From a virus (lineage: Duplodnaviria > Heunggongvirae > Uroviricota > Caudoviricetes), in the IMG/VR virus record IMGVR_UViG_3300020429_000539, positions 1-44,262 of that record: a stretch of DNA of 44,262 bases; one strand, written 5' to 3'. Positions 1 through 19,985 of this stretch are shown in pieces; within the stretch, counting starts at the first letter, position 1; each line of letters begins with the position of its first letter. The position numbers were made by a program, and so were the translations under genes. Under the pieces are notes generated by a model that had not been told where the DNA came from, searched no databases, and saw only the letters and a program-made list of their open reading frames with translations.

Positions 1-123
1 TCTGTAGGTGGTTCTGTAGGTGGTTCTGTAGGTGGTTCTGTAGGTGGTTCTGTAGGTGGTTCTGTAGGTGGTTCTGTAGGTGGTTCTGTAGGTGGTTCTG
101 TAGGTGGTTCTGTAGGTGGTTCT
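1..123. repeat. Perfect 12-bp tandem repeat (TCTGTAGGTGGT), 10 copies, coding EPPT
   Basis: Directly visible; truncated by the window start. Confidence 0.98.
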
Positions 124-200
124 ACCACATCATTAGGCACAAACACCAGCTTGATGTCGCCTTGAGGGGTGGAAAGGATGATAAATTCGTATTGCTCCAT
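1..200 (-). CDS. Partial CDS (runs off left edge) with EPPT tandem repeat linker
   Basis: ATG at 200 preceded by AAGGAG; reads MEQYEFIILSTPQGDIKLVFVPNDVV then (EPPT)n, open to the window edge; not in the ORF track. Confidence 0.8.
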   Translation of the reverse strand, partial: MEQYEFIILSTPQGDIKLVFVPNDVVEPPTEPPTEPPTEPPTEPPTEPPTEPPTEPPTEPPTEPPT

Positions 201-314
201 AAAGTAACTCCTTTTGCATGAGCTACTTACATCTTCATGGAGCCATTCTACCTGCCTTCACTGTATACAGTGATTGGAGGGGTCATTGCCACTTTATCTG
301 GAAAGATTGCAGAT

Positions 315-350
315 AAAAAAGACCCACAACTCTGTTTAGAGTCGTAGGCC
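315..350 (-). terminator. Intrinsic terminator closing the Pro/His/Met tRNA operon
   Basis: Minus strand GGCCTACGACTCT-AAAC-AGAGTTGTGGGTC followed by TTTTTT. Confidence 0.8.
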
Positions 351-388
351 TCTTGCTTTTTGTCCTGAGAAGCAAGTAAAAACTCGAA

Positions 389-462
389 TAGCGGGAGGCA
401 GATTCGAACTGCCGACCTCTTGGTTATGAGCCAAGCGAGCTACCAGACTGCTCCATCCCGCA
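389..462 (-). tRNA. tRNA-Met(CAT), initiator-like
   Basis: Cloverleaf TGCGGGA...CTTGG-CTCATAA-CCAAG...GTTCGAAT...TCCCGCTA; 1:72 mismatch; no encoded CCA. Confidence 0.9.
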
Positions 463-477
463 AACTAGGTTTTGAAA

Positions 478-551
478 TAGCGGAGGAGAGATTCGAACTC
501 TCATCGGATGGCTTATGAAACCAACGCTGGTCCTGTCCAGTCTACTCCGCG
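478..551 (-). tRNA. tRNA-Met(CAT), divergent
   Basis: CGCGGAG/CTCCGCT acceptor, loop TTCATAA, T-loop GTTCGAAT. Confidence 0.8.
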
Positions 552-621
552 ATCGATTGTACCCTCTGCCTTGACTGTCGGGCTCATGGGGTAAGCCAAG
601 ACAGAGGGAACTATTGGTAAG

Positions 622-749
622 GGATGCCGGTGGGACTCGAACCCACATCACTCGCTCCACATGCGATAACCGTCTGATCAATCGGCTCATATGAGCAAGT
701 TAGCGAACGACGACTGTATAAGCGCTTTACCAATTAAGCTACAGCATCC
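622..749 (-). tRNA. tRNA-His(GTG)-like gene with a 55-nt insertion (666-720) in the anticodon stem
   Basis: G-1:C73 pair, GATGCTG/CGGCATC acceptor, D arm GCTT-AATTGGTA-AAGC; removing 666-720 gives CTCGC-ATGTGGA-GCGAG and a normal T arm. Confidence 0.75.
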
Positions 750-753
750 ATTT

Positions 754-825
754 TAGCAAGTAAGTTGCGAAACAAGGGGTTCTAAACATGATAAGTGTTG
801 TTAACCTTGAATCTTCGACTTGCTA
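754..825 (-). ncRNA. Y-RNA-like small structured RNA, copy A
   Basis: Terminal stem TAGCAAGT/ACTTGCTA with GTCGAAG...CTTAC bulged helix; inner CAAGG/CCTTG stem. Confidence 0.55.
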
Positions 826-832
826 TGTATTG

Positions 833-911
833 TATCGGACGAGTAAGTGGGTGGGCATCGGGGTTTCACAGTTTCAAGATGTTAACCGATGACCTTCGAC
901 TCTATCCGATA
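833..911 (-). ncRNA. Y-RNA-like small structured RNA, copy B
   Basis: TATCGGA..GAGTCGAAG...CTTACTC.TCCGATA; inner CATCGG/CCGATG stem; shares GGTTAACA and AACCCC with copy A. Confidence 0.55.
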
Positions 912-913
912 AA

Positions 914-988
914 TCAGAGTGGAGGGATTCGAACCCCCGACCTCCTCCGTCCAAGGGAGGCGCGCTGACCAAACTGCGCCACACTCTG
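914..988 (-). tRNA. tRNA-Pro(TGG)
   Basis: CAGAGTG/CACTCTG acceptor; CCTCC-CTTGGAC-GGAGG anticodon arm. Confidence 0.92.
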
Positions 989-1029
989 CAAAACGATGCT
1001 CTTTACTTGTCAAAGATGCAACAAATAAG

Positions 1030-1104
1030 TCGGAGTAGTCAGATTCGAACTGACGACCTTTTGTCCCCCAGACAAACGCGCTAACCAAGCTGCGCCATAC
1101 TCCG
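1030..1104 (-). tRNA. tRNA-Pro(GGG)
   Basis: CGGAGTA/TACTCCG; TTTGT-CTGGGGG-ACAAA. Confidence 0.93.
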
Positions 1105-1106
1105 AT

Positions 1107-1299
1107 TTGAACAGGTAAGGGATGCCAAGGAAGAATCCAGCAGATATTTAGGTGGTCCCCAGCAAGCTGGGAAGCGGCTTAGATTAACCCCTGGCTCTGC
1201 TGACTATAAGGTACTATGTCCCTTATAGTTTACCAAGGAATCTTCGCCGTAACTTAGGACCGTCCGTGTATGATAATCCTTTAGCTTCGACCTGTTCAA
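1107..1299 (-). ncRNA. Long Y-RNA-like structured RNA, copy C
   Basis: TTGAACAGGTCGAAG...CTTACCTGTTCAA closing stem with the same bulged motif; internal hairpins ACTATAAGG/CCTTATAGT and CCCAGC/GCTGGG. Confidence 0.5.
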
Positions 1300-1484
1300 T
1301 ATTCAGTTTTCAAATCCATGTTGAGCTTTTTCAGACTCAACAGGATGCAACCTTCGGTCCAGCCTATACTGGCGTAGCCGGACCTCCACTTGCGCCAACA
1401 TTTCGTAACAGATGATCCAGTAAGGGCCAGAGTCTTCTGGGTCTGTTCTACTGTTGGCTTGGAACGCCTTTCGTTGTTCCTAAG

Positions 1485-1559
1485 TCAAGGTGAGAGGATT
1501 CGAACCTCCGGCCTTCTGGTCCCAAACCAGACGCTCTAACCAAGCTGAGCTACACCCTG
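1485..1559 (-). tRNA. tRNA-Pro(TGG), second copy
   Basis: TCTGG-TTTGGGA-CCAGA anticodon arm, canonical D and T arms. Confidence 0.93.
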
Positions 1560-1563
1560 ATTT

Positions 1564-1770
1564 TTAATACTGCCTTTCTTTATAGCAGTTTATCGGTGCC
1601 TGAATATCTTCAGACTTCAGATTCCTGAGTTGTTCTTTTACATCCTTCGGCAAGGCGAGATAAGTTTCGCCTGGTCGAATGTCTTCTGGTCTCTTGCAAC
1701 TGATGAAACGTAGCATACGAATACGCTCCATCACTTCATACATTGTTTTCTTCGGCGTTGTATCGATCAT
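1564..1770 (-). CDS. Small hypothetical protein between tRNAs
   Basis: 68-aa ORF (MIDTTPKK...) filling the spacer; the longer listed ORF overlaps a tRNA. Confidence 0.5.
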   Translation of the reverse strand: MIDTTPKKTMYEVMERIRMLRFISCKRPEDIRPGETYLALPKDVKEQLRNLKSEDIQAPINCYKERQY

Positions 1771-1778
1771 CTTTCCAA

Positions 1779-1852
1779 TCAGAGAGACACGAGTTGAACG
1801 TGCGACCTTCTGGCCCCGAACCAGACGCTCTACCAAGCTGAGCTACTCTCTG
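1779..1852 (-). tRNA. tRNA-Pro(CGG)
   Basis: TCTGG-TTCGGGG-CCAGA; CAGAGAG/CTCTCTG acceptor. Confidence 0.92.
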
Positions 1853-1853
1853 T

Positions 1854-1879
1854 ATTCTAGCAACTACAGGTTTCACCTG
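1854..1879 (-). promoter_or_regulatory. Repeated phage promoter-like motif CAGGTGAAA-N11-TAGAAT
   Basis: One of about 11 copies with fixed spacing. Confidence 0.6.
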
Positions 1880-2019
1880 CAAGTATCTGGATTATTTCGT
1901 GGCTGGGTAGGCCGCTGTGTTCATTGTCGGCATAAACACAATACCTTCGTAGACTTTCACACGCAAAGCGTGAGATTCTCCGAAGGACCAGATTTTGATT
2001 GTTGCGGGTGCGGACGGAC

Positions 2020-2127
2020 TCAGAGAGTCGCGGGTCCATCCTTCGGAACAGAGCGCGACACGATCCCTGAGCCCCTTGTAGGGACTGTGCCATTTGGCAT
2101 CGGGATGTTGGGGTTGCGTGTCTGCAT
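2020..2127 (-). CDS. Putative Pro-rich leader peptide (35 aa, MQTRNPNIPMPNGTVPTRGSGIVSRSVPKDGPATL)
   Basis: GGAG SD; lies between a sigma70 promoter and the tRNA-Pro cluster; 6 Pro codons covering CCC, CCG, CCA, CCT. Confidence 0.6.
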   Translation of the reverse strand: MQTRNPNIPMPNGTVPTRGSGIVSRSVPKDGPATL

Positions 2128-2163
2128 TCTATTCTCCGAGCCCTCAGAGGGGCATGAAGGGCA

Positions 2164-2191
2164 AGTATAACCCTCATACGAAGGCTGTCAA
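2164..2191 (-). promoter_or_regulatory. sigma70-type promoter TTGACA-N16-TATACT
   Basis: Near-consensus hexamers just downstream of a terminator. Confidence 0.75.
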
Positions 2192-2214
2192 TCCATCTCC
2201 TTCAAAAATCTGCC

Positions 2215-2261
2215 CAAAAAGAGCAAAAAGATAGGCGGCTCCAAACAGAAGCCGCCCATCT
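2215..2261 (-). terminator. Intrinsic terminator after the NAD gene operon
   Basis: AGATGGGCGGCTTC-TGTTT-GGAGCCGCCTATCT then T-runs. Confidence 0.8.
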
Positions 2262-2281
2262 GTGGGAGAGAAGAGACAGGT

Positions 2282-2920
2282 TTAGGTATTTACGTCTCGC
2301 GGCAGGTCTTTCATATCCGTGATTCCATGCTGTTCACGAATTTGGGTTGAACTGAGACCCAGCAAAGCTTCGTCAGGTGTTTCGCCTCGCAAGCAGTTCA
2401 TCGGCAAGCGACCATTGAACTCGCGATGATTGTGGAGTCCAAGGCGTTCTCCGTTCATTTCTCGGTCATACACGATGAACTTACCATTGATGCCTTGGAT
2501 GCCTGCAACACCATGATGCTGCAACAGCTTGACAGCGTTGTCAATGCCAATGTGAAACGTAATTGACCAGTGACAAAGAACGCCTGATTTTTGCATGAAG
2601 TAAGGCCATCGGTTTACGAGGATACTCCCCATACCGTTTGTTTGCTCAAGCCGAGGCCGCAATGACTCAAGACTCAGGAACTCTTTGTCGATGCGCTCGA
2701 TAGCGATTTCAAAGTGCTTTTCTCGGGCATCAATTTTGTTATACAAGGCACGATGCGCAGCATGCATCGGATTGAAACTGCCAGGTACGAGATGAATGAA
2801 ACCAGTCTTGAATGGAGACTGGTCTTTATAGACAGGCAGAATCTCTCCATCTCGCCACACGAAGGCGAACAGAGAATCTGCGATGACACGAGAATACGCT
2901 TCTTCGAGGGAAAGGCTCAT
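2282..2920 (-). CDS. NadD-like (HIGH-class) nucleotidyltransferase, putative NMN/NaMN adenylyltransferase
   Basis: PGSFNPMHAAH and SSTQIR motifs; ATGA overlap with the upstream gene. Confidence 0.7.
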   Translation of the reverse strand: MSLSLEEAYSRVIADSLFAFVWRDGEILPVYKDQSPFKTGFIHLVPGSFNPMHAAHRALYNKIDAREKHFEIAIERIDKEFLSLESLRPRLEQTNGMGSILVNRWPYFMQKSGVLCHWSITFHIGIDNAVKLLQHHGVAGIQGINGKFIVYDREMNGERLGLHNHREFNGRLPMNCLRGETPDEALLGLSSTQIREQHGITDMKDLPRDVNT

Positions 2921-3612
2921 ACTGACGCCTCCATTGTTCGTCGCTCGACCCATGTTGGGCCTTCAATCCATGGGTTGTCAGCGACATCGTATGTGCCATC
3001 GTCGTTCAGTGTGTAGTCCGTGATGGTCTCGCCTTCTCCGAGCCATGCAAACTTGATGTCGTCCATCAGGACGGCGAGAGCGGCCATCGTAATCTTGGCA
3101 TCTTCCATCTCTCTGACGGCCTCCACACGACCTTGAGCAGCAAGCTCAGCGTAACCTTGTTCGTCGGCCTTGCTGAGACTAAGTTGGACACGGCGCTCTT
3201 GATTGGTCTTGGGATTGAACATCCAAATCCAAGCTTCGTTGACTCCGCGACGATAGCGGGTCGTCGTAATGCTTGCATTGATGACCAGGAGCCTCGCGTC
3301 AGGACTCGCCAGCGCGTTCGCATTGATCAGTGCGTTGAGGTATAGCTCGGTTGCCACAGGGCCAACAAAAGCGACATGACCCGTGGTCAATGGATTTTCC
3401 ATTCCTTTTGGAAGCGCCTGTTGCGTAAACTGAATCGATTTGGCTTGGTTGTAGGGGATGAAGATGTCATTGAGAACGCTACTCGCGCCAGGCAGTTTGC
3501 CGATGTCACCGAATGCGAAACCACCACCCGTAATCATCGCAGAGATGCGCTGACCTTCCGATGTCTCGGCCCATTGTTCTTTGAATCGACGGATAGCAGA
3601 ATGATGATTCAT
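2917..3612 (-). CDS. CinA C-terminal/PncC-like protein
   Basis: ITGGG...LPGASSV...PY motif resembling the CinA-C TGG/PGAS signature; adjacent to NadD-like gene. Confidence 0.55.
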   Translation of the reverse strand: MNHHSAIRRFKEQWAETSEGQRISAMITGGGFAFGDIGKLPGASSVLNDIFIPYNQAKSIQFTQQALPKGMENPLTTGHVAFVGPVATELYLNALINANALASPDARLLVINASITTTRYRRGVNEAWIWMFNPKTNQERRVQLSLSKADEQGYAELAAQGRVEAVREMEDAKITMAALAVLMDDIKFAWLGEGETITDYTLNDDGTYDVADNPWIEGPTWVERRTMEASV

Positions 3613-3620
3613 GTTGGTTC

Positions 3621-4334
3621 CTATACGACCATGGGTTCAATGTGGGACCGCGATATCTGTTTCGCATGCTGAAGCTCAGCGCCTCCCCACATAAAGACCA
3701 AGAAGGCAATCAGAATGATCATGGGGTCAAACTCAACGATGCCCCATACAGCAAAGCCAGCGCAAGCTACTACGCTGACATATCTTGCGATGTATGTTGC
3801 TCTGAGATGACTGGTAAAGAACTTGCATGTTGAGCGAAGAAGCCTTCCTCCGTCCATTGGAAAAGCAGGCACCAAGTTGAACACGAGCAGGATAAGATTA
3901 ATCTTCCACATCGCGAGAAGAATAGTAGAAGGCAGGGGATTGAGGGGTACATAGGTATAGAGATGCCATGCGGCAACAAACAAGAAGGCGCTAACCATCA
4001 GGCCGCCCATCGTGATGAAGAACTCTTCCTTGGCTGTCCACAGGCTTTTGCGCTTGTTTTCGCCGATATTTGCCAGCCCACCGAAGATATAGATGGTTAT
4101 GTCAGGTGTTGAAAAGTTGTAGTATTTTGCCATGAGAATGTGACCAAACTCATGCAGCAGCACAGATACAAGCAGGACTAGCAAGACAATATAGGTCGCA
4201 ATCAGATAAGCGAAACCCTTGCCAGAGAAAATCGTTACCAAGCAGATAACCGCGAACAGCAGCAAGAACGTCCAGTTGATATGAACGGTCGTCCCAAACC
4301 ACTTGCCAAGATAGAGGGCGCGATTGCGAATCAT
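3621..4334 (-). CDS. Site-2 protease, M50 family membrane metalloprotease
   Basis: HEFGH and NLVPAFPMDGG motifs, multiple TM segments. Confidence 0.9.
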   Translation of the reverse strand: MIRNRALYLGKWFGTTVHINWTFLLLFAVICLVTIFSGKGFAYLIATYIVLLVLLVSVLLHEFGHILMAKYYNFSTPDITIYIFGGLANIGENKRKSLWTAKEEFFITMGGLMVSAFLFVAAWHLYTYVPLNPLPSTILLAMWKINLILLVFNLVPAFPMDGGRLLRSTCKFFTSHLRATYIARYVSVVACAGFAVWGIVEFDPMIILIAFLVFMWGGAELQHAKQISRSHIEPMVV

Positions 4335-5911
4335 GCTGCGCCTGCGGTCTGCATTTTCAAAAGCTCAGGAAGTTCAGCGCGTTCCCGAACCTGCTGAAAT
4401 GTCCATTCTTGGACAACTTCGCCATCGCGGAAGACTTCGACCAACAGGTCTCCACCAAAGTCATTGGGATTCTCTTCGAGCGTGTTGATGGTTCGAAGCG
4501 TGCCGTTGTCGTTGACAAGAGCGAGGAGGCCACGCTTGCTCTTCTTGCTCGAACCAGTCTTCGGGTCTTTGTAGACCTCATAGCCCTGTCCATTGATTTC
4601 GCTGTAGCAGGCCTTGAACGCACAGGCGTAGGTGTCACGATTCATCTTCTGCAACAGTGCGCCGCCACTGCCGAAGGCAAGGTTCTCAGCCGACCAACCT
4701 GCGTCCATGACGGCTTGCAAGATATCGCGGAGGCTTCGCCAGTTGATACCGTCGCCTTGGATGACACGAATGGAATCGTGCAGAACCTTGAAACCCTTGG
4801 CGTTCTCAGTGTACCCGAACTTTTCGCCAAGGACTTCAAGAACCTTTGGAACGATTTCGGTAGGCTCGCCAGAGTCAGGTCGAACCACAAGAACACCCTC
4901 GCGTTCCATGATTTGCTCACGAAGCTCGCCACCCCACACGTTTTCGCAGAGTCCGAACAGGTCGTAAGAGTCAGAAACACAGGCAACGAAGCCGGTCGGG
5001 AACTGGTCGAGCAAACGCTTGCAGACTTCTCGTTCGCCCTCCGGTCCCTTGATGGTCATGATGGAATGCTCGGTGGCGGGGATACTGAAACCACTCATCG
5101 TTTCGCTGTAGAACTTATCCCAGGCAGCAAACGAGTCATCAGCGTCCCAGTCGGAATGGGGTCCGATGCCATTGCGGTCGTATTCGAGCAGATGTTCAAA
5201 CGTATCACCCTGGTAGAACTGTGTTGTCAGTTCGATGGCAGCCATGGTGTCGGTGCCTGCGAAGTTGACAAGATGCGCTGCGCCGCCAATAGCCGCGCTT
5301 TCGACGCTCGACACGCCTCGGTACCCGAAGTCATGCAGACGACTCGGCATGAGAATAGGAATCATCTCATCCGTCGCGGTCTTTTGCATGAACTCGAAAA
5401 TGGTCTGCTTGCAAGAGCGAGACAGAGAGGCGACAGTCATCGGATACCAGACTTGGACGAGGACTGTTTCGAGAAAGTTCGTGAGCCATGCGCATTCGGA
5501 GTCGGTGTTTTCGATCATCATCAGCACGTTGGACGAGGGAACAACGGTTCCTTCGGGTACGGCGCGAATCGTAACCGGCAGTTTCCCACCGTGCTTCTTG
5601 ATGATATGACGCCAGCCCTCAGCATTGAAAATGCTTTCGTTGCCCATGAAGTGATGCTTGCAGAAAGCTCGGATGCGAGGCAGGTCTTGGTAGCTAACCA
5701 CGCCGCCTCGGAAGAATCGCTTCAAGAAGTATTGCAATCCAAAGAACACGGTTTCATCCGCGAACTCGGCACCTGCTCGGGCCTCGAAGTATGAGACCAG
5801 TCGCTCAACGCCATCGACGTAGATGCGATGATGGGAAATCTTGTAGCTGTCCGTAAAGTTGGGCAGCGAAAGATGAAGGCCATTCATGAGCATAACTGGT
5901 TCTCCTGTCAA
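4331..5911 (-). CDS. nadV: Nicotinamide phosphoribosyltransferase (NAMPT)
   Basis: TDSYKISH, LHDFGYRG, SIPATEHS, VSDSYD, VRPDSG, IQGDG, FGSGG motifs. Confidence 0.93.
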   Translation of the reverse strand: MTGEPVMLMNGLHLSLPNFTDSYKISHHRIYVDGVERLVSYFEARAGAEFADETVFFGLQYFLKRFFRGGVVSYQDLPRIRAFCKHHFMGNESIFNAEGWRHIIKKHGGKLPVTIRAVPEGTVVPSSNVLMMIENTDSECAWLTNFLETVLVQVWYPMTVASLSRSCKQTIFEFMQKTATDEMIPILMPSRLHDFGYRGVSSVESAAIGGAAHLVNFAGTDTMAAIELTTQFYQGDTFEHLLEYDRNGIGPHSDWDADDSFAAWDKFYSETMSGFSIPATEHSIMTIKGPEGEREVCKRLLDQFPTGFVACVSDSYDLFGLCENVWGGELREQIMEREGVLVVRPDSGEPTEIVPKVLEVLGEKFGYTENAKGFKVLHDSIRVIQGDGINWRSLRDILQAVMDAGWSAENLAFGSGGALLQKMNRDTYACAFKACYSEINGQGYEVYKDPKTGSSKKSKRGLLALVNDNGTLRTINTLEENPNDFGGDLLVEVFRDGEVVQEWTFQQVRERAELPELLKMQTAGAA

Positions 5912-6297
5912 TCGTCTGCATCACTCTTGAGTGTTGACAGCCGATTTAGTGGTGTTTCGGATGGGATTGAATCGATAGACTGCAACGCCTGCGAGATATG
6001 CCCGAACATCAGCGTCAGGTTTGTATCGTAACAGTCTGTTGAGGTTGTATCGCTGCTGTGAACACGAACGTATGTATTACCAGCAGCGGACTGCATTTCT
6101 TCGAGTTTCGTGATATTCCACACGGGAATAGCGGTTGTAGAATACGGGTCGTCGCCGAGCCATACATCAATCGTCAGAAAGCCATTGTTCACAGAGTATG
6201 AGTACGACTTACCTGATTCGATAGGGTCGCAGCTAACAAGCAGCATTACGGTTGAGAAGAGGACTAGAGTCAATCCGATTCGGGCAAGCTGTGTCAT
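5908..6297 (-). CDS. Hypothetical lipoprotein
   Basis: Hydrophobic signal ending in lipobox-like LLVSC. Confidence 0.6.
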   Translation of the reverse strand: MTQLARIGLTLVLFSTVMLLVSCDPIESGKSYSYSVNNGFLTIDVWLGDDPYSTTAIPVWNITKLEEMQSAAGNTYVRVHSSDTTSTDCYDTNLTLMFGHISQALQSIDSIPSETPLNRLSTLKSDADD

Positions 6298-8769: not shown

Positions 8770-9200
8770 AATGTTGCTGATTCATCATCGCCAGCATCAA
8801 GATATTGAACTTCGGCATATGCAAACTCTGCTGTGTCTTGATGCATTGTGATGAGAGATTTTGGTTTGTTTGCTTGCCGCGATTTGTTCCTGGTAATCAT
8901 TTTGATTGCTTTGGTGAGTCCATAATCGAAGCATTTGCTAAGGAACAAATTTCGCCAATAAGAGTTCTGTAATCTTAGACCATCTCTGCCAATGTCAACT
9001 CGTAAGATTTCATGCGCAAAAATACGGAATGTTGCAGCTTCACCGCAATCCGTATGCAACAGTTCTTCTTTCAGTTTCTCCCAAAGTTGCTCAAGCTCTT
9101 TGCCGTTTTCAAGATTGGGACCAGTCATCGCTCGTGCGACAACCTCGTGATTCTCAGCGATACAGCGTTGCTCGACTTGAGCAGCAAGTATATGTGTCAT
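8766..9200 (-). CDS. Hypothetical protein
   Basis: Overlap-coupled ORF. Confidence 0.6.
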   Translation of the reverse strand: MTHILAAQVEQRCIAENHEVVARAMTGPNLENGKELEQLWEKLKEELLHTDCGEAATFRIFAHEILRVDIGRDGLRLQNSYWRNLFLSKCFDYGLTKAIKMITRNKSRQANKPKSLITMHQDTAEFAYAEVQYLDAGDDESATF

Positions 9201-9796
9201 TGCGAACTACCGTGCATAACGGTGTCAAAGGGGCCAAGCCTGCCAATAATAGAAGGGCATTTGCCCATAAGGGGCTTATCGTTCCACCGCTTCATAGCCC
9301 ACCTTTGATATTCTTCTTGTGTATCAATCCAATGCAGGCCAAACTCTTCGCGAAGTTGCCCCATTTTCATGTTTTGATAACGAGGAGACCTGAAAGGCAC
9401 CTTGGTCAAGTCTGGGCAGTCTGAGCGCAGACCGTAAGACAATCCTTCATCAAAATGTTCGCGGTCTACGCAAGACATTTTGTAAGTGCCAGGATATGTC
9501 CGTGACCAGACTTTGAGCAGCGCAGCATGCCATGGCCGCAGGTCATGTGCTGTGCCCATCGTGAAGCCAATGGTCCACGCTTCGCATTCGCTATAGAAAG
9601 AGGTACATAGAATCGCATGAATACAATCATGCGTAAAGAGGTCAACTGCGCCAGGCAAAGCGAATTTACTCTCAGGATTCTCAAATAAACGGACCTGCCA
9701 CGGAATTTTATCAGGTGGGTCGCGAGGCATGGTCGCCAGAACTTCGGCGAGAGTTTTCTCGCAGTTCAGTTCAGGTTTCCAAACTCGCCAAGGCAT
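9197..9796 (-). CDS. Coq4-like metal-binding protein
   Basis: HDCIH-x11-E resembles the Coq4 HDxxH...E motif. Confidence 0.45.
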   Translation of the reverse strand: MPWRVWKPELNCEKTLAEVLATMPRDPPDKIPWQVRLFENPESKFALPGAVDLFTHDCIHAILCTSFYSECEAWTIGFTMGTAHDLRPWHAALLKVWSRTYPGTYKMSCVDREHFDEGLSYGLRSDCPDLTKVPFRSPRYQNMKMGQLREEFGLHWIDTQEEYQRWAMKRWNDKPLMGKCPSIIGRLGPFDTVMHGSSQ

Positions 9797-9805
9797 GTCG
9801 CCTCC

Positions 9806-10510
9806 TTAGAAGAGTTTCAACGGCTCAAGCAGTTCGTGAATGCGACGAGCAAGATCAAGGCTCTTGGGGTCATCAGAACGGAATCGTGCGTGCATGTAGG
9901 AGTCGAGAGCAATACGAACCAGGTCAATAACCACTTCATCTTTGATGATGATGCCCGGCATCTCTCCCTTCGCTACCATCTGTGCGAGGTCTTCCATGTC
10001 AAATCGCTTCGCATAAAGCGATTTGTCATAAAGAACAACGAATCCGCCTTCGTCATACGTTTCGCCGTCTTTCATGAATACTACGGCTTTGAGTTCATCA
10101 AAGTCCATTTCAGGACTTTCTTCAGCATCAATCATCTCTTGAATGAGGTCAACGCCTTGACGGACCTGCATCGCAGAGAAGTCAACACCTTCTTTTGTCT
10201 TTTCGACAGGCGTCACAAAGTCGAAATCCGTGCCTTCGCTTGCGTCCTCGTGGACATATTCGCCACCATGGACGATGTTGACCAGACCACCAGGCACTTC
10301 TGTGACTTCAACCGTATCCCCCTTTGAAATGCCGTCTTGGGGATAATCATGAAGCGCCGTCGCTTTGTAGTAGGCAAATGATTCCATAAAGCAACCGTCA
10401 GGAAGCTTTGTTCGTGGCTTGCGTTGTGTTTCCTTACCTGTTACGTCTTTGTGGACCCAATCATTCTTGTCGATTGACCATTCGCCAGCCGCCATCAGTG
10501 GATTGCTCAT
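9806..10510 (-). CDS. Hypothetical acidic protein
   Basis: 234-aa ORF, leaderless promoter-like motif upstream. Confidence 0.75.
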   Translation of the reverse strand: MSNPLMAAGEWSIDKNDWVHKDVTGKETQRKPRTKLPDGCFMESFAYYKATALHDYPQDGISKGDTVEVTEVPGGLVNIVHGGEYVHEDASEGTDFDFVTPVEKTKEGVDFSAMQVRQGVDLIQEMIDAEESPEMDFDELKAVVFMKDGETYDEGGFVVLYDKSLYAKRFDMEDLAQMVAKGEMPGIIIKDEVVIDLVRIALDSYMHARFRSDDPKSLDLARRIHELLEPLKLF

Positions 10511-10516
10511 AGCTGT

Positions 10517-10543
10517 ATTCTACCTCGATCTGACTTTCACCTG
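10517..10543 (-). promoter_or_regulatory. CAGGTGAAA-N12-TAGAAT, leaderless
   Basis: -10 ends 6 nt before the ATG at 10510. Confidence 0.65.
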
Positions 10544-10544
10544 A

Positions 10545-11333
10545 TTATACGAGAATCAAGTCATTGATGTTGTTGAGTCCCTCAGTAAGAACAACTGGTC
10601 CATCATCGCTGATATAAACGTCATGTTCATAGTGGACAGCGATGGAACCATCAGCCGTATAAATAGGCCAGGTGTTCTTTTCATGACGAAGCTTTCCGGT
10701 TCCAGCGCACACCATTGGTTCAACTGCAAGGAACATGCCTTCTTTGAACTTCATATCGTCGGTTGAAGTACCTGTAACTGTGTTGGGCAAGAATGGTTCC
10801 ATATGCAGCTTTCTGCCGTACCCATGACCGCCCAAGCCTTCGGCGCAATGAAAGCCTGCATCTTCGACAGTTCGCTGAATAGTTTTAGACCAGTTTCTAA
10901 ACGGAGAAGTTGGCGTCATCATGTAGATACCGCTTAGAATGGCATCTTTAGCGCAAGAGGTAAGCTTTGAGACTGTTTCAGAGGGCTCGCCAAAGACGTA
11001 TGTCCATGCAGCGTCACCAATGAAGCCTCGATACGACACACCAATGTCGATGCTCAGAACATCGCCTGCTTTAACTGGTTCAGTGTAGGAGGCTGCCGTG
11101 CCATGCACGATGCAATCATTGATACTCAAGCAAGAGTATGATGGAAAAAGAGGTTTTATACCTGATGTTCTATAGCCTCGGAAGCATGACTTGCTATCAA
11201 GGTCTGCGAGTTGATGCCGAACGAAAGCATCTATCTGCGGAAGCTTAACGCCGATTCGCAGCCATTGGGAAAGTCGTTCATGAATTTCAACAACCCTGTT
11301 TGCTGATTCGGTTGCGCGTTCAAGGTCAGTCAT
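10545..11333 (-). CDS. map: Methionine aminopeptidase type I
   Basis: CLSINDCIVHG, IDIG, GDAA, GHGYG...H.EP, VEPM, HYEH metal ligands. Confidence 0.92.
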   Translation of the reverse strand: MTDLERATESANRVVEIHERLSQWLRIGVKLPQIDAFVRHQLADLDSKSCFRGYRTSGIKPLFPSYSCLSINDCIVHGTAASYTEPVKAGDVLSIDIGVSYRGFIGDAAWTYVFGEPSETVSKLTSCAKDAILSGIYMMTPTSPFRNWSKTIQRTVEDAGFHCAEGLGGHGYGRKLHMEPFLPNTVTGTSTDDMKFKEGMFLAVEPMVCAGTGKLRHEKNTWPIYTADGSIAVHYEHDVYISDDGPVVLTEGLNNINDLILV

Positions 11334-11962
11334 TCGCCATACTTCTCCCAGCCCACGCCGAAGACTTCCTTGAGCTTCGCGATGTAGGCGTCTGTCTTGA
11401 TTTTCGCCATCCAAAGAGAATGACCCGACCCGCCCTTACAGACAACGCCTTCTTCAATGCCATCGCCTGTATTGTAGTCGCCTCGTTTCACGGCTGCGAT
11501 GAAGTCTTCGTTGAGATTGCCCTCGTAGACAACCTCAGCGGCATTGCATTCGCCAACGAAGCGATTGACAAAATCACGAGGCGAAACAAGTCCCTGCTGA
11601 TGAATATTGACATCAAACAGAACAAGTTCCATTGGATTGTCAGGTTCAAGATCATGAAGACCAGCGAAACTCTTAGGGCCGACAAACTCTGCGTAGGCTG
11701 TTACCCGCCGCGTTCTTCGCCAGTGCTTGTTTGATTTGATGATGTTCAGAACATCATCTGCAAGAGTTGAACGAAAAAGAGCAATGGCAGGTCCAAAGAC
11801 CTCATCGCTCTCATCGAACAACCTTTTGCGTGTCCCGAACTTGTGCCAGCCCTGTTTGGGCGACCATTCGAAACGGATATTCGACCCATCGTATTTCTTG
11901 AACGCAATGCAAGGCTTACGGGGTGCTTGAGAAGAACCTGGAATGGAGGGGTAGAGTTTCAT
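11330..11962 (-). CDS. ATP-dependent RNA ligase-like nucleotidyltransferase
   Basis: Motif I KYDGSN, III AEF, IIIa LFD, IV EGVV, V AKIK; no OB domain. Confidence 0.7.
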   Translation of the reverse strand: MKLYPSIPGSSQAPRKPCIAFKKYDGSNIRFEWSPKQGWHKFGTRKRLFDESDEVFGPAIALFRSTLADDVLNIIKSNKHWRRTRRVTAYAEFVGPKSFAGLHDLEPDNPMELVLFDVNIHQQGLVSPRDFVNRFVGECNAAEVVYEGNLNEDFIAAVKRGDYNTGDGIEEGVVCKGGSGHSLWMAKIKTDAYIAKLKEVFGVGWEKYGE

Positions 11963-12037
11963 AGATGATTTATTGTGATATTGTTTGCCCACAGTCCTGT
12001 AAGCATATTAGTAATACCTGTATCAACTTTTGCTCTT

Positions 12038-12346
12038 TTAATCTGCTTCTTCAGAGCGAGCAAGTTTACCCATAGATAAGACATGAGTTTTTTTAGCGAG
12101 AGATTCGAATTCATTCAAATATATCTTGATCTCTTCGAAACTCATATCTGTTTCATCTTTATGGTAAAGCTCGTTTGCTTTATTGAGAATTTCTGAATCG
12201 GACTCATAATGACGTATTATATCTTCAAGATATGTGGAGACATATGAAAGAAACTCAATAGGTTCTTCGATTTCATCGCCACAATCTAGTCCAAGAGAAT
12301 CCCAGTATAAAGCAAGTTTTTCAAATTCAGCTTGATCGTATTTCAT
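12038..12346 (-). CDS. Hypothetical acidic protein
   Basis: AT-rich 102-aa ORF. Confidence 0.6.
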   Translation of the reverse strand: MKYDQAEFEKLALYWDSLGLDCGDEIEEPIEFLSYVSTYLEDIIRHYESDSEILNKANELYHKDETDMSFEEIKIYLNEFESLAKKTHVLSMGKLARSEEAD

Positions 12347-12352
12347 TTTGCT

Positions 12353-12724
12353 TCAATCTTTAATTCCATAGACGTACCTGTATCGTTCTGCACTGATTTT
12401 GCCATTGCGTTCAATCCATCCGAACTCAATAGCACCATTGAACTCGCTAGCGCATTCGGTGTTAGAGCAGGCCATGTTCTGCGAGCATCCTCCACAAGGA
12501 CCAGGCAAAAGCTTGCTGCCGCAATCAGGGCAGCAGCGTGTATTACAGAGATATAGCGACTCATCACGAGACAAAGAGTCGTGAGAGTTAGGATCAGTGC
12601 GTTCTTTGATGTTGTTGTGATCTCGAAACGTGTTGTATTTAACAGGTTTCATTGGGGGTGGGAACAGTTTGAAGGAAAGAAAACCTTCCGCGATGCTTTG
12701 GAGTCCTTTGATGATTGATTTCAT
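12353..12724 (-). CDS. Hypothetical Zn-ribbon protein
   Basis: CPDCG...CSNTEC. Confidence 0.6.
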   Translation of the reverse strand: MKSIIKGLQSIAEGFLSFKLFPPPMKPVKYNTFRDHNNIKERTDPNSHDSLSRDESLYLCNTRCCPDCGSKLLPGPCGGCSQNMACSNTECASEFNGAIEFGWIERNGKISAERYRYVYGIKD

Positions 12725-12912
12725 CCTCTACCACACTCATTTCTGCAAGAACAATCGGGCCAAAAATCGCATACACCCTTCTCTCGCCAGGTCGTTTTTG
12801 CCTCATCGCTGAATTGTCCACATGCCTTTTCAATCAGCGCAAGACGAAACTCGTCATTGGTCTGATGCTGCTTCAGCGCTTCGGAAAGTCGTTTGGCTTG
12901 TTCTCTGGTCAT
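12721..12912 (-). CDS. Small hypothetical protein
   Basis: ATGA-coupled at both ends. Confidence 0.5.
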   Translation of the reverse strand: MTREQAKRLSEALKQHQTNDEFRLALIEKACGQFSDEAKTTWREKGVCDFWPDCSCRNECGRG

Positions 12913-13172
12913 TCTTGCGAAGTATCCTTGAAGAATGGAGCATAATGCTCTATTGAGGACGAAGCAACTTCGCATCGCTCGAAGTCAGGACATACGCCTG
13001 TAAAATGGATACTCAGTTGACGAACATCGCCTGTATGCTTTTCATGCTTGTAGGAGTGCTTATTACACGTTCCCCATGTTTGACCGTTGAAGTTGCCATG
13101 AGCGCAGAGGCCGCATGCCGATTGAAGTCGGTAATCAATTTGGCCGAGTGTGATGGCTTTATTGCGGTCCAT
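12909..13172 (-). CDS. Small Cys/His-rich protein
   Basis: CGLCAH...C..H...CPDF. Confidence 0.55.
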   Translation of the reverse strand: MDRNKAITLGQIDYRLQSACGLCAHGNFNGQTWGTCNKHSYKHEKHTGDVRQLSIHFTGVCPDFERCEVASSSIEHYAPFFKDTSQE

Positions 13173-13184
13173 GATATTTCTCAA

Positions 13185-13259
13185 TGACCCCAGCGGGATT
13201 CGAACCCGCGTTACCAGGATGAAAACCTGGTGTCCTGGACCAGACTAGACGATGGGGCC
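13185..13259 (-). tRNA. tRNA-Glu(TTC)
   Basis: CCAGG-TTTTCAT-CCTGG; typical Glu D arm GTCTAG...AGGAC. Confidence 0.93.
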
Positions 13260-13484
13260 TCTAAAAATCATTGACAATCGCTTTCGCAACGAACAATGTT
13301 TGTTAACGAGACATCTCCAAAGACCAGGCCAAACTTTGTAGACTGCGTTACCCGCTGTGCCTTTGGCAACATTTTGCCATGTGCCTGTATTGCAGAGCTT
13401 ACAGTCTTTGTCTGGGATAGCGTGTCTACTGCAAATCGAGTAGAAACGCTCTTTCCTTAGTCCTTTTCCTCGTTCTCTCAACAT
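13245..13484 (-). CDS. Small basic hypothetical protein between tRNAs
   Basis: 79-aa ORF filling the spacer, slight overlap with the tRNA. Confidence 0.4.
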   Translation of the reverse strand: MLRERGKGLRKERFYSICSRHAIPDKDCKLCNTGTWQNVAKGTAGNAVYKVWPGLWRCLVNKHCSLRKRLSMIFRGPIV

Positions 13485-13487
13485 GAA

Positions 13488-13561
13488 TGATGCAGTCGGG
13501 ACTCGAACCCGATAGGCCGTACTTGAAAGGTACGCTACTCGACCACTTTGTATTCTGCACC
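13488..13561 (-). tRNA. tRNA-Glu(TTC), divergent
   Basis: GGTGCAG/CTGCATC; CGTAC-CTTTCAA-GTACG; atypical D arm. Confidence 0.8.
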
Positions 13562-13562
13562 G

Positions 13563-13588
13563 ATTCTATCAGACAGGCTTTTCACCTG
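13563..13588 (-). promoter_or_regulatory. CAGGTGAAA-N11-TAGAAT motif abutting a tRNA 5' end
   Basis: Repeated motif. Confidence 0.55.
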
Positions 13589-13593
13589 TTTAA

Positions 13594-13667
13594 TGACCCC
13601 AACGGGATTCGAACCCGTATCCCAAGATTGAAAATCTCGATATCCTAAACCGTTAGACGATAGGGCC
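13594..13667 (-). tRNA. tRNA-Glu(TTC)
   Basis: CGAGA-TTTTCAA-TCTTG anticodon arm. Confidence 0.9.
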
Positions 13668-13675
13668 AACATCAA

Positions 13676-13749
13676 TGCTCCCAGGGGGACTCGAACCCCC
13701 GTTACCAGATTGAGAGTCTGGCGTCCTGGACCTGCTAGACGATAGGAGC
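13676..13749 (-). tRNA. tRNA-Glu(CTC)
   Basis: CCAGA-CTCTCAA-TCTGG. Confidence 0.93.
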
Positions 13750-14259
13750 TTATTTGTTTCCTTTTTGAAGGTTATCTTTTGCCCAAAGGGGCTGTAAATT
13801 ATTCAGGGACCAGCACTTTTTGAAATCATCAGAGTTGATTCCATTTATGTTGAAAGACGAGATAGGCTTGATATGATCGATATGCCATTTCCCATAATTA
13901 TCCCAAGTCATTCCTGGTTGAAATTGTTTTTCAAGATGCGATTTGAGTTCATCGAGTGAATATCCAACAACTTCTTCCCACTTGGCCCCATTCTTGTCTG
14001 TTCCTAATGACCTCCTGATTTGTCTTGACATATTGTATGCCAAGCTGTGTTTCCTGTAGTTCCTAAGTGCCTTGCGTTTTGCTTTTCCAGGATCTCTGTC
14101 GTATAGCTCTTTTTTGTAGGCTTTGCCTTTATTGGTTTTGTAGTATTTCGATACTTGTTTTGATTTACAGGCTTTACACCATGATTGAAAGCCATCTTTG
14201 CTCTTCTTGCATTTGAAGAACTCTCCGGTTTTACCGCATTTTGCGCAGGTTTTTGTCAT
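13750..14259 (-). CDS. HNH homing endonuclease inserted in the tRNA-Glu cluster
   Basis: N-terminal CxxC/CxxC, GMTWDNYGKWHIDHIKP...NLQPLWAKDNLQKGN; AT-rich relative to flanks. Confidence 0.88.
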   Translation of the reverse strand: MTKTCAKCGKTGEFFKCKKSKDGFQSWCKACKSKQVSKYYKTNKGKAYKKELYDRDPGKAKRKALRNYRKHSLAYNMSRQIRRSLGTDKNGAKWEEVVGYSLDELKSHLEKQFQPGMTWDNYGKWHIDHIKPISSFNINGINSDDFKKCWSLNNLQPLWAKDNLQKGNK

Positions 14260-14265
14260 AATAAA

Positions 14266-14339
14266 TGACCCCTATGGGATTCGAACCCATGTTACTAGAT
14301 TGAGAATCTAGTGTCCTCGGCCAACTAGACGAAGGGGCC
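14266..14339 (-). tRNA. tRNA-Glu(CTC), second copy
   Basis: CTAGA-TTCTCAA-TCTAG. Confidence 0.93.
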
Positions 14340-14403
14340 TACAGGTCGGGTCCACTGAGCATGGCGCTCTCTTCAGTTGTATGTGGGTAGAAGGAGAGCC
14401 TTG

Positions 14404-14454
14404 TCAGTGAACCTGACGTTCCATGCGTTCGAGATGTTCAAGGAACATGGTCAT
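14404..14454 (-). CDS. Putative Glu leader peptide (16 aa, MTMFLEHLERMERQVH)
   Basis: AAGGA upstream; three GAA codons; lies between the promoter and the first tRNA-Glu; 3' end pairs with 14345-14358. Confidence 0.5.
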   Translation of the reverse strand: MTMFLEHLERMERQVH

Positions 14455-14498
14455 GGTTTGCTCAATCCTTCTGAGGGTTGGTCCCTCTTTATTCGGCA

Positions 14499-14527
14499 AG
14501 TATACCCCACTACCTTCAAGAATTCAC
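14499..14527 (-). promoter_or_regulatory. sigma70-like promoter GTGAAT-N17-TATACT
   Basis: Follows a terminator and precedes the leader and tRNA-Glu cluster. Confidence 0.55.
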
Positions 14528-14575
14528 CCCACGCCACCAAATTTCTTGCATTTCGGCCAAAAACTTTGGCGCAGC

Positions 14576-14605
14576 AAAAGAGGCCACCGATAAGCGATGG
14601 CCTCT
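14576..14605 (-). terminator. Intrinsic terminator
   Basis: AGAGGCCATCG-CTTAT-CGGTGGCCTCT-TTT. Confidence 0.75.
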
Positions 14606-14627
14606 AAAGTCGAGCGGAGGGGCCGCT

Positions 14628-15299
14628 TCAGCCGTCCGCGTCGGTCTTGAGGTCGTCCATGACGCCCTCGAAGGCCTTGTTCGCCCGCGACTGAAGCATC
14701 GAACCGATGCCGTTGTAAATCGCGTCCCATGCGCCGACGATGATGTCATTGGCGAAAGTCCAGAAAGCGTCAAACGGCCAATATGACATCCAAAAGAGAA
14801 TAGTGGCCTTGTGTGTGCGAACACGGGGCGTAAGAATAGTTTGGACCTGCGTTGAGGTAGTCTGGTCTGCTCGGATGTGACGGGGGCAATGCTTTCCGCA
14901 GATGTCTTCTGCGTGGTTCTTAACGTAGGTCGTCCATTGTGACTTCAGTTCATCGGGAACGCTCTTTTTACCCGCATGTCCTTTTTCTGCAAGCCACTCA
15001 TCTCGCAGTTCGTTGTACCTCTGCTTTCTTCCGCGACAAAACATTTCCCATCGCGGAAAAACCCAGAGAATGCCGCAGACGAAGTAGATGCCGAGCATTG
15101 CAAGCAACCACAGCGGATTTGCCAGAATCGTACCGAGCATATTGAATGGAGAGAAGATGGCAATAATAAACAGGTAGATGATGAAAGAGGTAGTTGCCAA
15201 CCATCCTTCTTCACGAGCCACGCCTGCAACCATCACTGCCGCAGCGATGGCAGTAAGGATCCAGAAAGCGATTCCGCCAACTGCGATAAGTTCAAACAT
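14628..15299 (-). CDS. Membrane protein, hypothetical
   Basis: Three to four hydrophobic helices. Confidence 0.8.
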   Translation of the reverse strand: MFELIAVGGIAFWILTAIAAAVMVAGVAREEGWLATTSFIIYLFIIAIFSPFNMLGTILANPLWLLAMLGIYFVCGILWVFPRWEMFCRGRKQRYNELRDEWLAEKGHAGKKSVPDELKSQWTTYVKNHAEDICGKHCPRHIRADQTTSTQVQTILTPRVRTHKATILFWMSYWPFDAFWTFANDIIVGAWDAIYNGIGSMLQSRANKAFEGVMDDLKTDADG

Positions 15300-15303
15300 G
15301 ATG

Positions 15304-15618
15304 CTAGTCTCCTATCTGTTCTTCAAGAGCTTTTTTCAGGTTATCCTTACTTTGCAAGCCAGTGAGGCGATTGACTTCTTTCCCGTCTTTGAAGATGATG
15401 ATTGTGGGCAACGCTGAAACAGACAGAGTAGCGATTGCTTCGTTATGGTCGTCGGCGTTGAGCTTGCCAACGATTGCGCGTCCCTCAAACTCTTCTGCGA
15501 GTTCATCAATGGTAGGCGCAAGCATGCGGCAGGGCATGCACCACTCAGCCCAGCAGTCAATGAGCGCAACACCCTCTCCAATTTGTTCGGCGTAGTTATT
15601 GTCAAATTCAAAAGCCAT
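15304..15618 (-). CDS. trxA: Thioredoxin
   Basis: WAEWCMPC active site, ALPT cis-Pro, FKDG. Confidence 0.92.
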   Translation of the reverse strand: MAFEFDNNYAEQIGEGVALIDCWAEWCMPCRMLAPTIDELAEEFEGRAIVGKLNADDHNEAIATLSVSALPTIIIFKDGKEVNRLTGLQSKDNLKKALEEQIGD

Positions 15619-15626
15619 GGTTTCTC

Positions 15627-16655
15627 CTATCTTTTAGCCCCTGTTGTTCCTTCAAAGAGGGCGCTGATTGATCTATCTTCGTGGATTCGAGTAATCGCTT
15701 CGCCCAACATCGGAGCAATGCTTAGCTCGACCAGTTTATCTCCAAGATGTTCAACAACATCAGGTCTGTTGGCCGCAGGAATCGTGTCGCTGATAATAAC
15801 TTTGCTGATAGTTGGTTGAGTGAGACGTTCAACTGCTTCTCCAACAAACAGCGGATGGGTTGCAGATACCATAACGCTCTGTGCCCCGTTATCTAGGCAG
15901 ATTTCGGCTGCTTTACAGACGGTGCCTGCTGTTGAAATCATATCATCGACCATCAAGATGTTCTTGTTTTTGACTCTGCCGATGATTTGTGAGTCCATAT
16001 CGATTTCGGTCCCACTCTTGCGTCTTTTGTTGATGATAGCAAGTTCCGCGTCAAGTTCATTGGCATAGCCCTCAGCAACCTTGACGTTCCCCACATCGGG
16101 CGAGACCAGGCACAGGTCTCCAAGTTCCTCTCGGATACTCTTAAAATAGTTGACGAAGACAGGGGCCGAATGCAGGTGGTCAACAGGGATGTCAAAAAAG
16201 CCCTGAATCTGAGCGGCATGAAGATCAACAGTTACAACACGGTCAGCGCCAGCCGAAACAACCTGATTTGCAACCAGTTTTGCTGTTATAGGCGTCCGTC
16301 CCTTGTCTTTACGGTCCTGCCTTCCGTAGCCGTAGTAAGGCATAACAGCCACGACTTGACGAGCCGATGCCCGCTTGAGAGCATCGATAAAGATGTAGAG
16401 TTCCATCAAGTTATCGTTGACAGGATTACAGGTAGAAATAATAACGTAGCAATCTTTGCCTCGAACGTCTTCTTTAAGGCGAACAAGAATCTCGCCGTCA
16501 GGAAAAAACTCGGTTGCAGAAGTGCTGAGCGGAAAGTCAATTGATTCGCAGACGCGCTCGCCGAGGATGAGGTTATTTGCGCCAGCAAATATCTTCTTAC
16601 CGTTACCGTGATTGCTCATATCATGCTCCTGCAAGGGCTCTCCATTCAATTTCAT
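15627..16655 (-). CDS. prs: Ribose-phosphate pyrophosphokinase (PRPP synthetase)
   Basis: FPDGE, PYYGYGRQDRK, DLHAAQIQGFF, SPDVG, VDDMISTAGT; alternative start 16619. Confidence 0.95.
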   Translation of the reverse strand: MKLNGEPLQEHDMSNHGNGKKIFAGANNLILGERVCESIDFPLSTSATEFFPDGEILVRLKEDVRGKDCYVIISTCNPVNDNLMELYIFIDALKRASARQVVAVMPYYGYGRQDRKDKGRTPITAKLVANQVVSAGADRVVTVDLHAAQIQGFFDIPVDHLHSAPVFVNYFKSIREELGDLCLVSPDVGNVKVAEGYANELDAELAIINKRRKSGTEIDMDSQIIGRVKNKNILMVDDMISTAGTVCKAAEICLDNGAQSVMVSATHPLFVGEAVERLTQPTISKVIISDTIPAANRPDVVEHLGDKLVELSIAPMLGEAITRIHEDRSISALFEGTTGAKR

Positions 16656-17479: not shown

Positions 17480-17487
17480 AGTGTGAC

Positions 17488-17982
17488 CTATGCAAAATGG
17501 TCTGTGCCGTACTTCGCGTCATGCGCTCTGATAATCGCATCAGCCTTCTCCCGACATTGTTTATCGTAGGCTTCTTTTTCTTCGAATCCCGCGTATGCAG
17601 GACTGTCGGGATGATTGGTCAGGGTAAACGTGTTGTCGCCTCTAACAGGAAAAACCTGTTCAGTCCCGCCTCCAATGAGGATGGGGATGCCATCGGAGAT
17701 TTTCATACCTGTTTCGCCGGCGACCTTGTAAGCGAGGTCTTTTTTATTCGCAGGGATGGAGAGCAGAAAGAACGGAAGCCCATCAAAGGACATCTGCCAT
17801 ACGAGGAAGTCATTGTTGGCATCGGTGCCTGGAATGAAGTAAGTGTATTCGAGCTTGATCATGAAGAGAGTAGCGCCGGGCCGCGAGAGCATGCAGACGA
17901 TATTGAATCGGTCAGGAGATTGACAGGTCTTGATAATCTCTTGCTCGGTTGTCGCTTCTGCGAAGGGCTTTTCATCGCTCAT
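17488..17982 (-). CDS. Hypothetical protein
   Basis: 164-aa co-directional ORF. Confidence 0.7.
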   Translation of the reverse strand: MSDEKPFAEATTEQEIIKTCQSPDRFNIVCMLSRPGATLFMIKLEYTYFIPGTDANNDFLVWQMSFDGLPFFLLSIPANKKDLAYKVAGETGMKISDGIPILIGGGTEQVFPVRGDNTFTLTNHPDSPAYAGFEEKEAYDKQCREKADAIIRAHDAKYGTDHFA

Positions 17983-19911: not shown

Positions 19912-19955
19912 GGGTTGTCCTTACTTTGCTCTATACAGTAGAGCGATGATTCGGC

Positions 19956-19981
19956 AATATACCCCAAACCAGTTTCACCTG
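19956..19981 (-). promoter_or_regulatory. CAGGTGAAA-N11-TATATT motif
   Basis: Repeated motif in an intergenic gap. Confidence 0.6.
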
Positions 19982-19985
19982 TTTC

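Follow-up and report, generated by a model that had tools for sequence, protein, structure and literature searches.

A proline-codon leader heading a phage tRNA-Pro block, and its sister leaders, as candidate attenuators of tRNA genes

Why phages carry tRNAs is a long-open question, in which codon compensation is weighed against the replacement of destroyed host tRNAs. The attenuators of amino-acid operons and of pheST (trpL, hisL, thrL, ilvL, pheL and pheM) combine a promoter, a short ORF with cognate codons and alternative helices. T-box riboswitches bind tRNA directly without translation and control transcription according to whether a specific tRNA is charged, and T-boxes have reportedly been found before tRNA-Ala genes in clostridia. 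The leader-peptide attenuator pheL is covered in PMC3082878. In mgtL, as described in PMC6335274 and PMC12360218, a leader with Pro codons uncovers a rut site when it is translated fast, and stalling hides the site in a stem-loop. Phage tRNAs, according to PMC10264068, replace host tRNAs that were destroyed by defence nucleases.

The window studied here is the whole 44,262-nucleotide stretch of DNA that was analysed, and represents the start of a complete 488,051-base phage record (G000) with direct terminal repeats. A sequence-only reading of the window had proposed that a Pro-codon leader peptide heads a tRNA-Pro operon and senses the depletion of tRNA-Pro. All elements it had named were found on the minus strand: the terminator, the promoter hexamers, the GGAG site, the 35-codon ORF with six Pro codons, the four tRNA-Pro genes and the hairpin followed by a C-rich tract, which turned out to be one of three competing helices. 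The features of the block are as follows.

2261-2229, minus strand: intrinsic-terminator-like hairpin, 14 pairs plus a T-run, kept in three close relatives
2191-2164, minus strand: sigma-70-type promoter-like site TTGACA-N16-TATACT, 11/12 matches, hexamers invariant in four sequences
2137-2134, minus strand: GGAG Shine-Dalgarno-like site, 6 nt before the ATG, invariant across the four aligned sequences
2127-2020, minus strand: leader ORF MQTRNPNIPMPNGTVPTRGSGIVSRSVPKDGPATL, 35 codons; frame, start and stop kept in the relatives L049-L051
2074-2016, minus strand: helix A, predicted long hairpin that spans codons 19-35 plus the stop, -33.2 kcal/mol
2048-1978, minus strand: helix C, predicted long-range duplex between 2048-2038 and 1988-1978, with the C-rich tract enclosed in between
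2041-2012, minus strand: helix B, predicted hairpin across the leader stop, GGATGGAC (2041-2034) with GTCCGTCC (2019-2012), -13.7
2019-1990, minus strand: tract rich in C and poor in G, no T-run; candidate site for Rho loading
1852-1779, minus strand: tRNA-Pro (CGG), first tRNA of the block
1559-1484, minus strand: tRNA-Pro (TGG)
1104-1029, minus strand: tRNA-Pro (GGG)
988-914, minus strand: tRNA-Pro (TGG)
748-622, minus strand: tRNA-like RNA with an extended arm (Rfam tRNA, 46.1 bits) within the Pro/Met block
552-388, minus strand: two tRNA-Met (CAT), end of the Pro/Met block

The hairpin at 2261-2229 is a candidate terminator that may close the upstream gene and insulate the tRNA unit, and the promoter-like site is the best among four such sites in 1-6000. 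Pro codons stand at positions 6 (CCC), 9 (CCG), 11 (CCA), 16 (CCT), 28 (CCG) and 32 (CCC) of the leader, and the first four thus comprise each Pro codon once, as had been noticed before. By eye, a hairpin with a T-run is seen at about 350-315, after the tRNA-Met pair. The spacer between the first two tRNA-Pro genes holds a 68-codon ORF (1770-1564) without a Pfam match, which is missing there in L051. At 200-1, an ORF with a long exact PTEP tandem repeat runs off the window start.

The spacers also carry repeats of the form GTCGAAG...GGTTA(A/T)C on the minus strand, at 900-840, 819-757, about 1294-1110 and about 1960-1876, and the same repeats occur at 87056, 84354, 80690 and 76748 of the record. 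They fit the bacterial Y RNA motif GNCGAAN0-1G given in PMC4201824. The tRNA-like RNA at 748-622 is possibly a YrlA-type Y RNA, and several 'intron-containing' tRNA calls, this one among them, may be YrlA-type mimics; the Y-RNA-like element did not reach the Rfam YrlA threshold (E = 2.1). A TROVE/Ro60 gene lies at 484520-485461, about 3 kb downstream of the Pro block across the record end. Another small ORF, MPTMNTAAYPATK (1933-1892), was weighed as a further sensor but set aside, as its stop is lost in 3/3 relatives and it overlaps the Y-RNA-like element.

The three close relatives L049, L050 and L051, whose upstream protein is 90-93% identical to its counterpart in the window, were aligned with the Pro leader (four sequences, 94% identity). 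Promoter, SD, start, frame and stop are kept in all three and indels are confined to the flanks. Within codons 2-18, the first four Pro codons did not vary (0/12 columns), compared to 10/39 columns of the other codons (p = 0.05); six amino-acid positions were changed in this part of the leader, all of them non-Pro. The proposed uORF is therefore conserved, including its first four Pro codons. Codons 19-36 vary at 2/54 columns versus 10/51 in codons 2-18 (p = 0.011), as is expected of paired RNA. The idea of one Pro codon per isoacceptor holds in the window only: no GGG tRNA was called in L050 and L051, yet all four Pro codons are retained there, and a one-to-one match with the isoacceptors is thus not strictly tracked. 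Outside these relatives, a blastn search of 380-2300 against 50,697 phage records gave matches to tRNA pieces only and no close isolate, and scans of viral contigs with the upstream gene, the tRNA-Pro pattern and the Pro-leader pattern gave no match.

Taken alone, the Pro leader is not clearly above chance and is weak evidence. Six Pro among 34 codons gave a raw binomial p of 0.0036, four different Pro codons a p of 0.078, and a comparison with 300 dinucleotide shuffles of the 400 nt upstream, using the best ORF each time, a p of 0.090. The case therefore rests on the other four blocks and on the relatives. The shuffle result would fit an ORF that arose by chance in the 5′ leader, structured and C-rich, of a tRNA precursor made constitutively, or a small peptide with a function of its own, and an NCBIfam search with the putative peptide returned no family. 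We consider this explanation very improbable: the indels spare SD, start, frame and stop and are limited to the flanks, the six changed non-Pro residues speak against a peptide function, and a matching of leaders to blocks across the genome, as described below, cannot come from such a cause. In metatranscriptome data, one 827-nt contig with zero differences spans 1291-2117, which is most of the leader and two tRNA-Pro genes, and one contig spans 14234-14452 at the Glu leader. These RNA contigs were set aside as expression evidence, since they give no strand, ends or level and 26 contigs lie across 9000-28900 in the same run. The lack of contigs over 2189-2890 was given no weight either.

ARAGORN made 71 calls in the record, and the tRNAs are grouped by amino acid. 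There are five promoter-headed multi-tRNA blocks, namely Pro/Met, Glu, Gln/Ser, Leu and a mixed one for 16 amino acids, the tRNA types of which together cover all 20 amino acids. All five blocks (5/5) carry a short ORF in the codons of their own amino acids, whereas by eye no such leader was seen at the single tRNAs, the tmRNA and the Val/Met pair. The sister leaders, with those of related phages discussed below, are listed here.

14454-14404 of the window, minus strand: Glu leader MTMFLEHLERMERQVH, heads five tRNA-Glu genes (14339-13185), no intrinsic terminator
Same record: Gln/Ser leader MLMQQQQSQSSQSSSSFGWPCALAP, terminator/antiterminator layout complete
Same record: Leu leader MTMQSVTLHLGLLLLA, no intrinsic terminator
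G010, Val/His/Ile block: leader MQQIIVHVGIVITT
G010, Gly/Thr/Met/Gln/Ser/Cys block: leader MKTMTSTTGHMTTTQSGGSCGGTSSCAMAGSGPSGP
G005, Trp/Val/His/Ile block: leader MNNKIVHQVIWHVITFRGKGC
G004 (distant), His/Tyr/Pro block: leader with a YPYHPYPYHP run

Read from its third Met, the mixed-block leader has cognate codons at 37/38 of the first codons after the start, and all 16 amino acids occur in it. This leader and the Gln/Ser leader possess a classical intrinsic terminator with a U-tract and a competing antiterminator. When the five leaders were assigned to the five blocks in all 120 ways, the true pairing ranked first, and it was still first with a longer start of the mixed-block leader. An orthologue of the Glu leader with 4 Glu is present in G010; a scan of viral contigs with the Glu-leader pattern gave this record and one chance match in an unrelated gene.

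Several other features lie around the tRNA genes. tRNAs with a CTA (amber) anticodon are found at 40552-40480 of the window and 46618-46542 of the record, as well as in G004, G005, G007 and G010, and TAG ends 76/504 crude ORF calls. ORFs that appear HNH-like by eye are inserted in or between tRNA genes (14259-13750 of the window, L039 1750-2160, and L043); the one at 14259-13750 had no Pfam match, and HNH-like insertions from about 5140 in L049 and about 4420 in L050 cut short the first tRNA-Pro. Genes for tRNA synthetases lie at 22597-21203 as well as immediately upstream of both the Gln/Ser block and the mixed block. The motif GCCGATA recurs at the promoter position, upstream of 176560 and 65336 in the record and at leaders of G002, G005, G006 and G010, and is possibly a phage-specific promoter element; matches to sigma-70 region 2 are present in the record.

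Related records were found by searches with GyrB, terminase and NAMPT, and 14 of them were searched for tRNAs. Matches were obtained in 9/14 (a single one in 2) and none in 5/14. In G010 (499 kb) the amino acids are split differently among the blocks and the leaders follow this split. Its Pro-block leader, 559 nt from the first tRNA, could not be aligned by eye to that of the window. The mixed-block leaders of G005 and G006 are orthologous; they differ by an indel of 3 nt, which preserves the frame, and by an A-U pair of the terminator stem that is replaced by G-C. The true pairing ranked 1 of 720 in G010, where the boundary between its two mixed blocks was set at an internal leader plus terminator, and 1 of 24 in G005.

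A survey of tRNA clusters for uORFs enriched in cognate codons versus shuffled controls, as had been suggested, was performed on 22 blocks from six records; single tRNAs, G006 (orthologous to G005) and G007 (a near-copy of G005) were excluded. The clusters passed it, with 15/22 blocks beating the shuffles at p < 0.05, although the blocks are not independent and the leaders were chosen after viewing. Thirteen of these 15 passed on the promoter-proximal leader and in the other 2 the best ORF differs from the promoter-proximal one. The remaining 7/22 blocks failed, the Pro leader of the window among them, and the Thr/Ser and Cys blocks of G004 and the mixed block of G001 showed none within 400 nt. 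Post-hoc choice of leaders affects the pairing test less than the shuffle survey. With the true pairing first in three genomes and the Pro codons conserved, the reading of the ORF as a cognate-codon leader is supported. We regard the Pro leader as very probably a cognate-codon attenuator, the direction of control being assumed along with translation.

An intrinsic terminator ends 10/18 leaders, and 8/18 are without one, including the Pro, Glu and Leu leaders of the window's record. When the 10 terminator leaders were folded at full length and equilibrium, 5 switched clearly and 2 partially, and 3 showed no switch. As equilibrium folding of whole leaders is a poor test, transcripts truncated before the 3′ arm of the terminator were folded by ribosome position. 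In 10/10 cases the 5′ arm was captured by leader RNA when the ribosome was upstream (maximum 0.72-0.91), and capture fell to 0.05-0.57 with the ribosome at the stop. Every tRNA type of the block is present in the capture zone in 10/10 leaders, counting the start Met for Met, and cognate codons make up 154/214 inside the zone versus 34/86 after it (Fisher p = 2e-7). The terminator-less leaders are more C-rich after the stop (C minus G of 8, 9, 7, 8, 9, 8, 3 and 5) than the terminator-bearing ones (2, 5, 2, 1, 2, 6, 2, 3, 2 and -1; p = 0.0007). Several terminator-less leaders also have the motif AACTGAA after the stop, which we take to resemble boxA.

The Pro leader has no intrinsic terminator, with no T5 run within 110 nt, and Rho-type rather than trp-type control is therefore predicted. 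The hairpin at 1987-1944 was rejected as an intrinsic terminator, because 3/3 relatives have broken pairs in it and the T-rich tail is not conserved. Folding of the region 2127-1976 is more stable than that of shuffled sequences (z = -2.87), and codons 27-31 are able to join the three mutually exclusive helices A, B and C. Helix A is predicted with the ribosome at codons ~11-15 and has no broken pair in the three relatives, with one A-U to G-U change; it could refold after ribosome release. Helix B is predicted with the ribosome at codons ~25-26 and is likewise unbroken, with a U-G to U-A change in L051. For helix C, the duplex energy is -18.6 in three sequences; L051 reaches -19.2 with the register shifted. 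Helix changes among these four sequences (94% identity) are all one-sided.

Folding of the leaders of the window and L051 by ribosome position gave helix A or C with the ribosome at codons 2-24 and almost no structure from codon 31 on, the RNA ahead of the ribosome going from about -51 to -26 kcal/mol at codons 2-24 to -10 from codon 31. With codons 2-24 as the predicted zone, Pro 6, 9, 11 and 16 lie inside it and Pro 28 and 32 outside, so that only the first four Pro codons are predicted to sit where a stall would matter. Of the 23 codons in this zone, just 4 are Pro and 1 is Met, so the leader would answer other stalls too. A general sensor of translation stalls (ribosome slowing, antibiotics, EF-P or m1G37 status), with a secondary Pro bias, would account for a tract that is predicted to stay covered by stalls anywhere in codons 2-24, and PMC6335274 describes mgtL as reading Mg2+ via m1G37-dependent Pro codons. 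Pro is, however, the only enriched residue and Pro-Pro runs are absent, the Pro codons are the invariant ones, and each of the other four leaders is matched to its own block, which makes such a general sensor quite improbable.

Rho sites are usually 60-80 nt long. The open C-rich stretch of the Pro leader, with about 30 nt, is short for such a site; its best 30-nt C minus G is 8, against a background mean of 3.3, and the 40 nt after the stop contain 15 C and 8 G. This shortness would agree with a cognate-codon sensor that has an output other than Rho. The helices would then govern a pause, the maturation or degradation of the tRNA precursor, or how the first RNA downstream folds. Also in line with such an output, no conserved T-run follows the downstream hairpin that is broken in the relatives, and helix C takes a strand otherwise paired with the start of the Y-RNA-like element (about 1960-1876; weak YrlA match). 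We nevertheless think it unlikely, since terminator-less and terminator-bearing leaders can be told apart by how C-rich the RNA is after the stop, as Rho sites predict, and the sister leaders are predicted to act on termination.

Concerning the host, the ten best matches to the phage PRPP synthetase were all from Planctomycetota in the one of 64 parts of the genome collection that was scanned, and the host therefore probably belongs to that phylum, judging from this one gene. The gene is one of several NAD-related or conflict genes of the phage (NAMPT, a weak NadD-like gene, PRPP synthetase, NADAR and a PARP-domain protein; 5911-2282, 16655-15627, 23277-22807 and 44207-43356). A domain search of the phage genome found no Rho, and Rho is present in 5/5 Planctomycetota genomes nearest to the phage PRPP synthetase. 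This presence and the mgtL-like layout lead us to favour Rho-dependent attenuation with tRNA feedback. We lean towards the Rho route as the way in which the Pro leader acts, with Rho an assumed host factor and the helices computed.

In the Rho-dependent model, the 35-codon ORF would be a translated leader that senses ribosome speed and gates the tRNA-Pro block. When charged tRNA-Pro is plentiful, the ribosome would reach the stop and break helices A, B and C, which would leave the C-rich tract bare; Rho could then load and end transcription before the first tRNA. A shortage of tRNA-Pro would hold the ribosome up at codons 6-16; with the tract then under helix A or C, transcription would run on into the tRNA genes. 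Newly made tRNA-Pro would speed up the ribosome again, in a negative-feedback loop. Likewise, each tRNA group is likely made only when its matching codons are read slowly. Because extra tRNA is no cure for a missing amino acid, the loss of tRNA molecules would be the more sensible trigger. Hosts deplete tRNAs on infection according to PMC10264068, and tRNA is degraded in starving E. coli as reported in PMC5314770. Replacement of destroyed host tRNAs is the likely purpose of the Pro block. A wider proposal, for and against which we see the balance as about even, is that this phage clade runs a decoding-surveillance panel: 4-6 leaders would split the 20 amino acids, each inducing the block for its unread codons by intrinsic or Rho-type attenuators, and would detect and replace tRNA destroyed by a host anticodon nuclease.

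The remark that no such sensing was known for phage tRNA arrays agrees with the literature searched: leader-peptide or attenuator control of tRNA genes was not found in full-text searches that covered mainly non-subscription journals. For the phage tRNAs of PMC10264068, on-demand control is not described, and 'attenuat' and 'promoter' are absent from that paper. Leaders that induce tRNA blocks on slow cognate reading would point to supply on demand, which is testable by reporter fusions. If true, the reach of ribosome-mediated attenuation would grow to include tRNA genes and phages, in the form of a feedback loop that is closed. How the leaders divide the amino acids could also show which tRNAs hosts attack together.

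Compared to the described systems, the Pro leader is closest in layout to Salmonella mgtL, the Rho-dependent uORF attenuator of mgtA. Both have a short leader with early, spaced Pro codons (here 6, 9, 11 and 16) and a C-rich, G-poor tract after the ORF, which in the phage is about 30 nt only. The target of mgtL is a Mg2+ transporter on a bacterial chromosome, whereas here it is tRNA genes in a phage, and the predicted product is a tRNA that reads the sensing codons and would close a loop. No Rfam match to the mgtA leader or another described leader family was found at gathering or E <= 5. The T-box resembles the phage leaders in tRNA-specific gating of transcription, predicted in our case, but the phage leaders rely on translation, and the Rfam search of the leaders gave no T-box covariance-model match. 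With the trpL/thrL type, the Pro leader shares a short ORF with a ribosome-binding site just after the promoter, predicted alternative helices, and cognate codons that are enriched or conserved when taken within the five-leader set. In contrast to that type, it lacks the intrinsic terminator that the Gln/Ser and mixed-block leaders of the same phage have, and the targets are tRNA genes rather than amino-acid biosynthesis or synthetase genes. Unlike amino-acid operon leaders, a single phage leader serves 16 amino acids, and the set of five accounts for all 20. This locus adds to the described systems a full partition of the 20 amino acids, seen in three genomes, two attenuator designs side by side, and a Pro member that is conserved and resembles mgtL.
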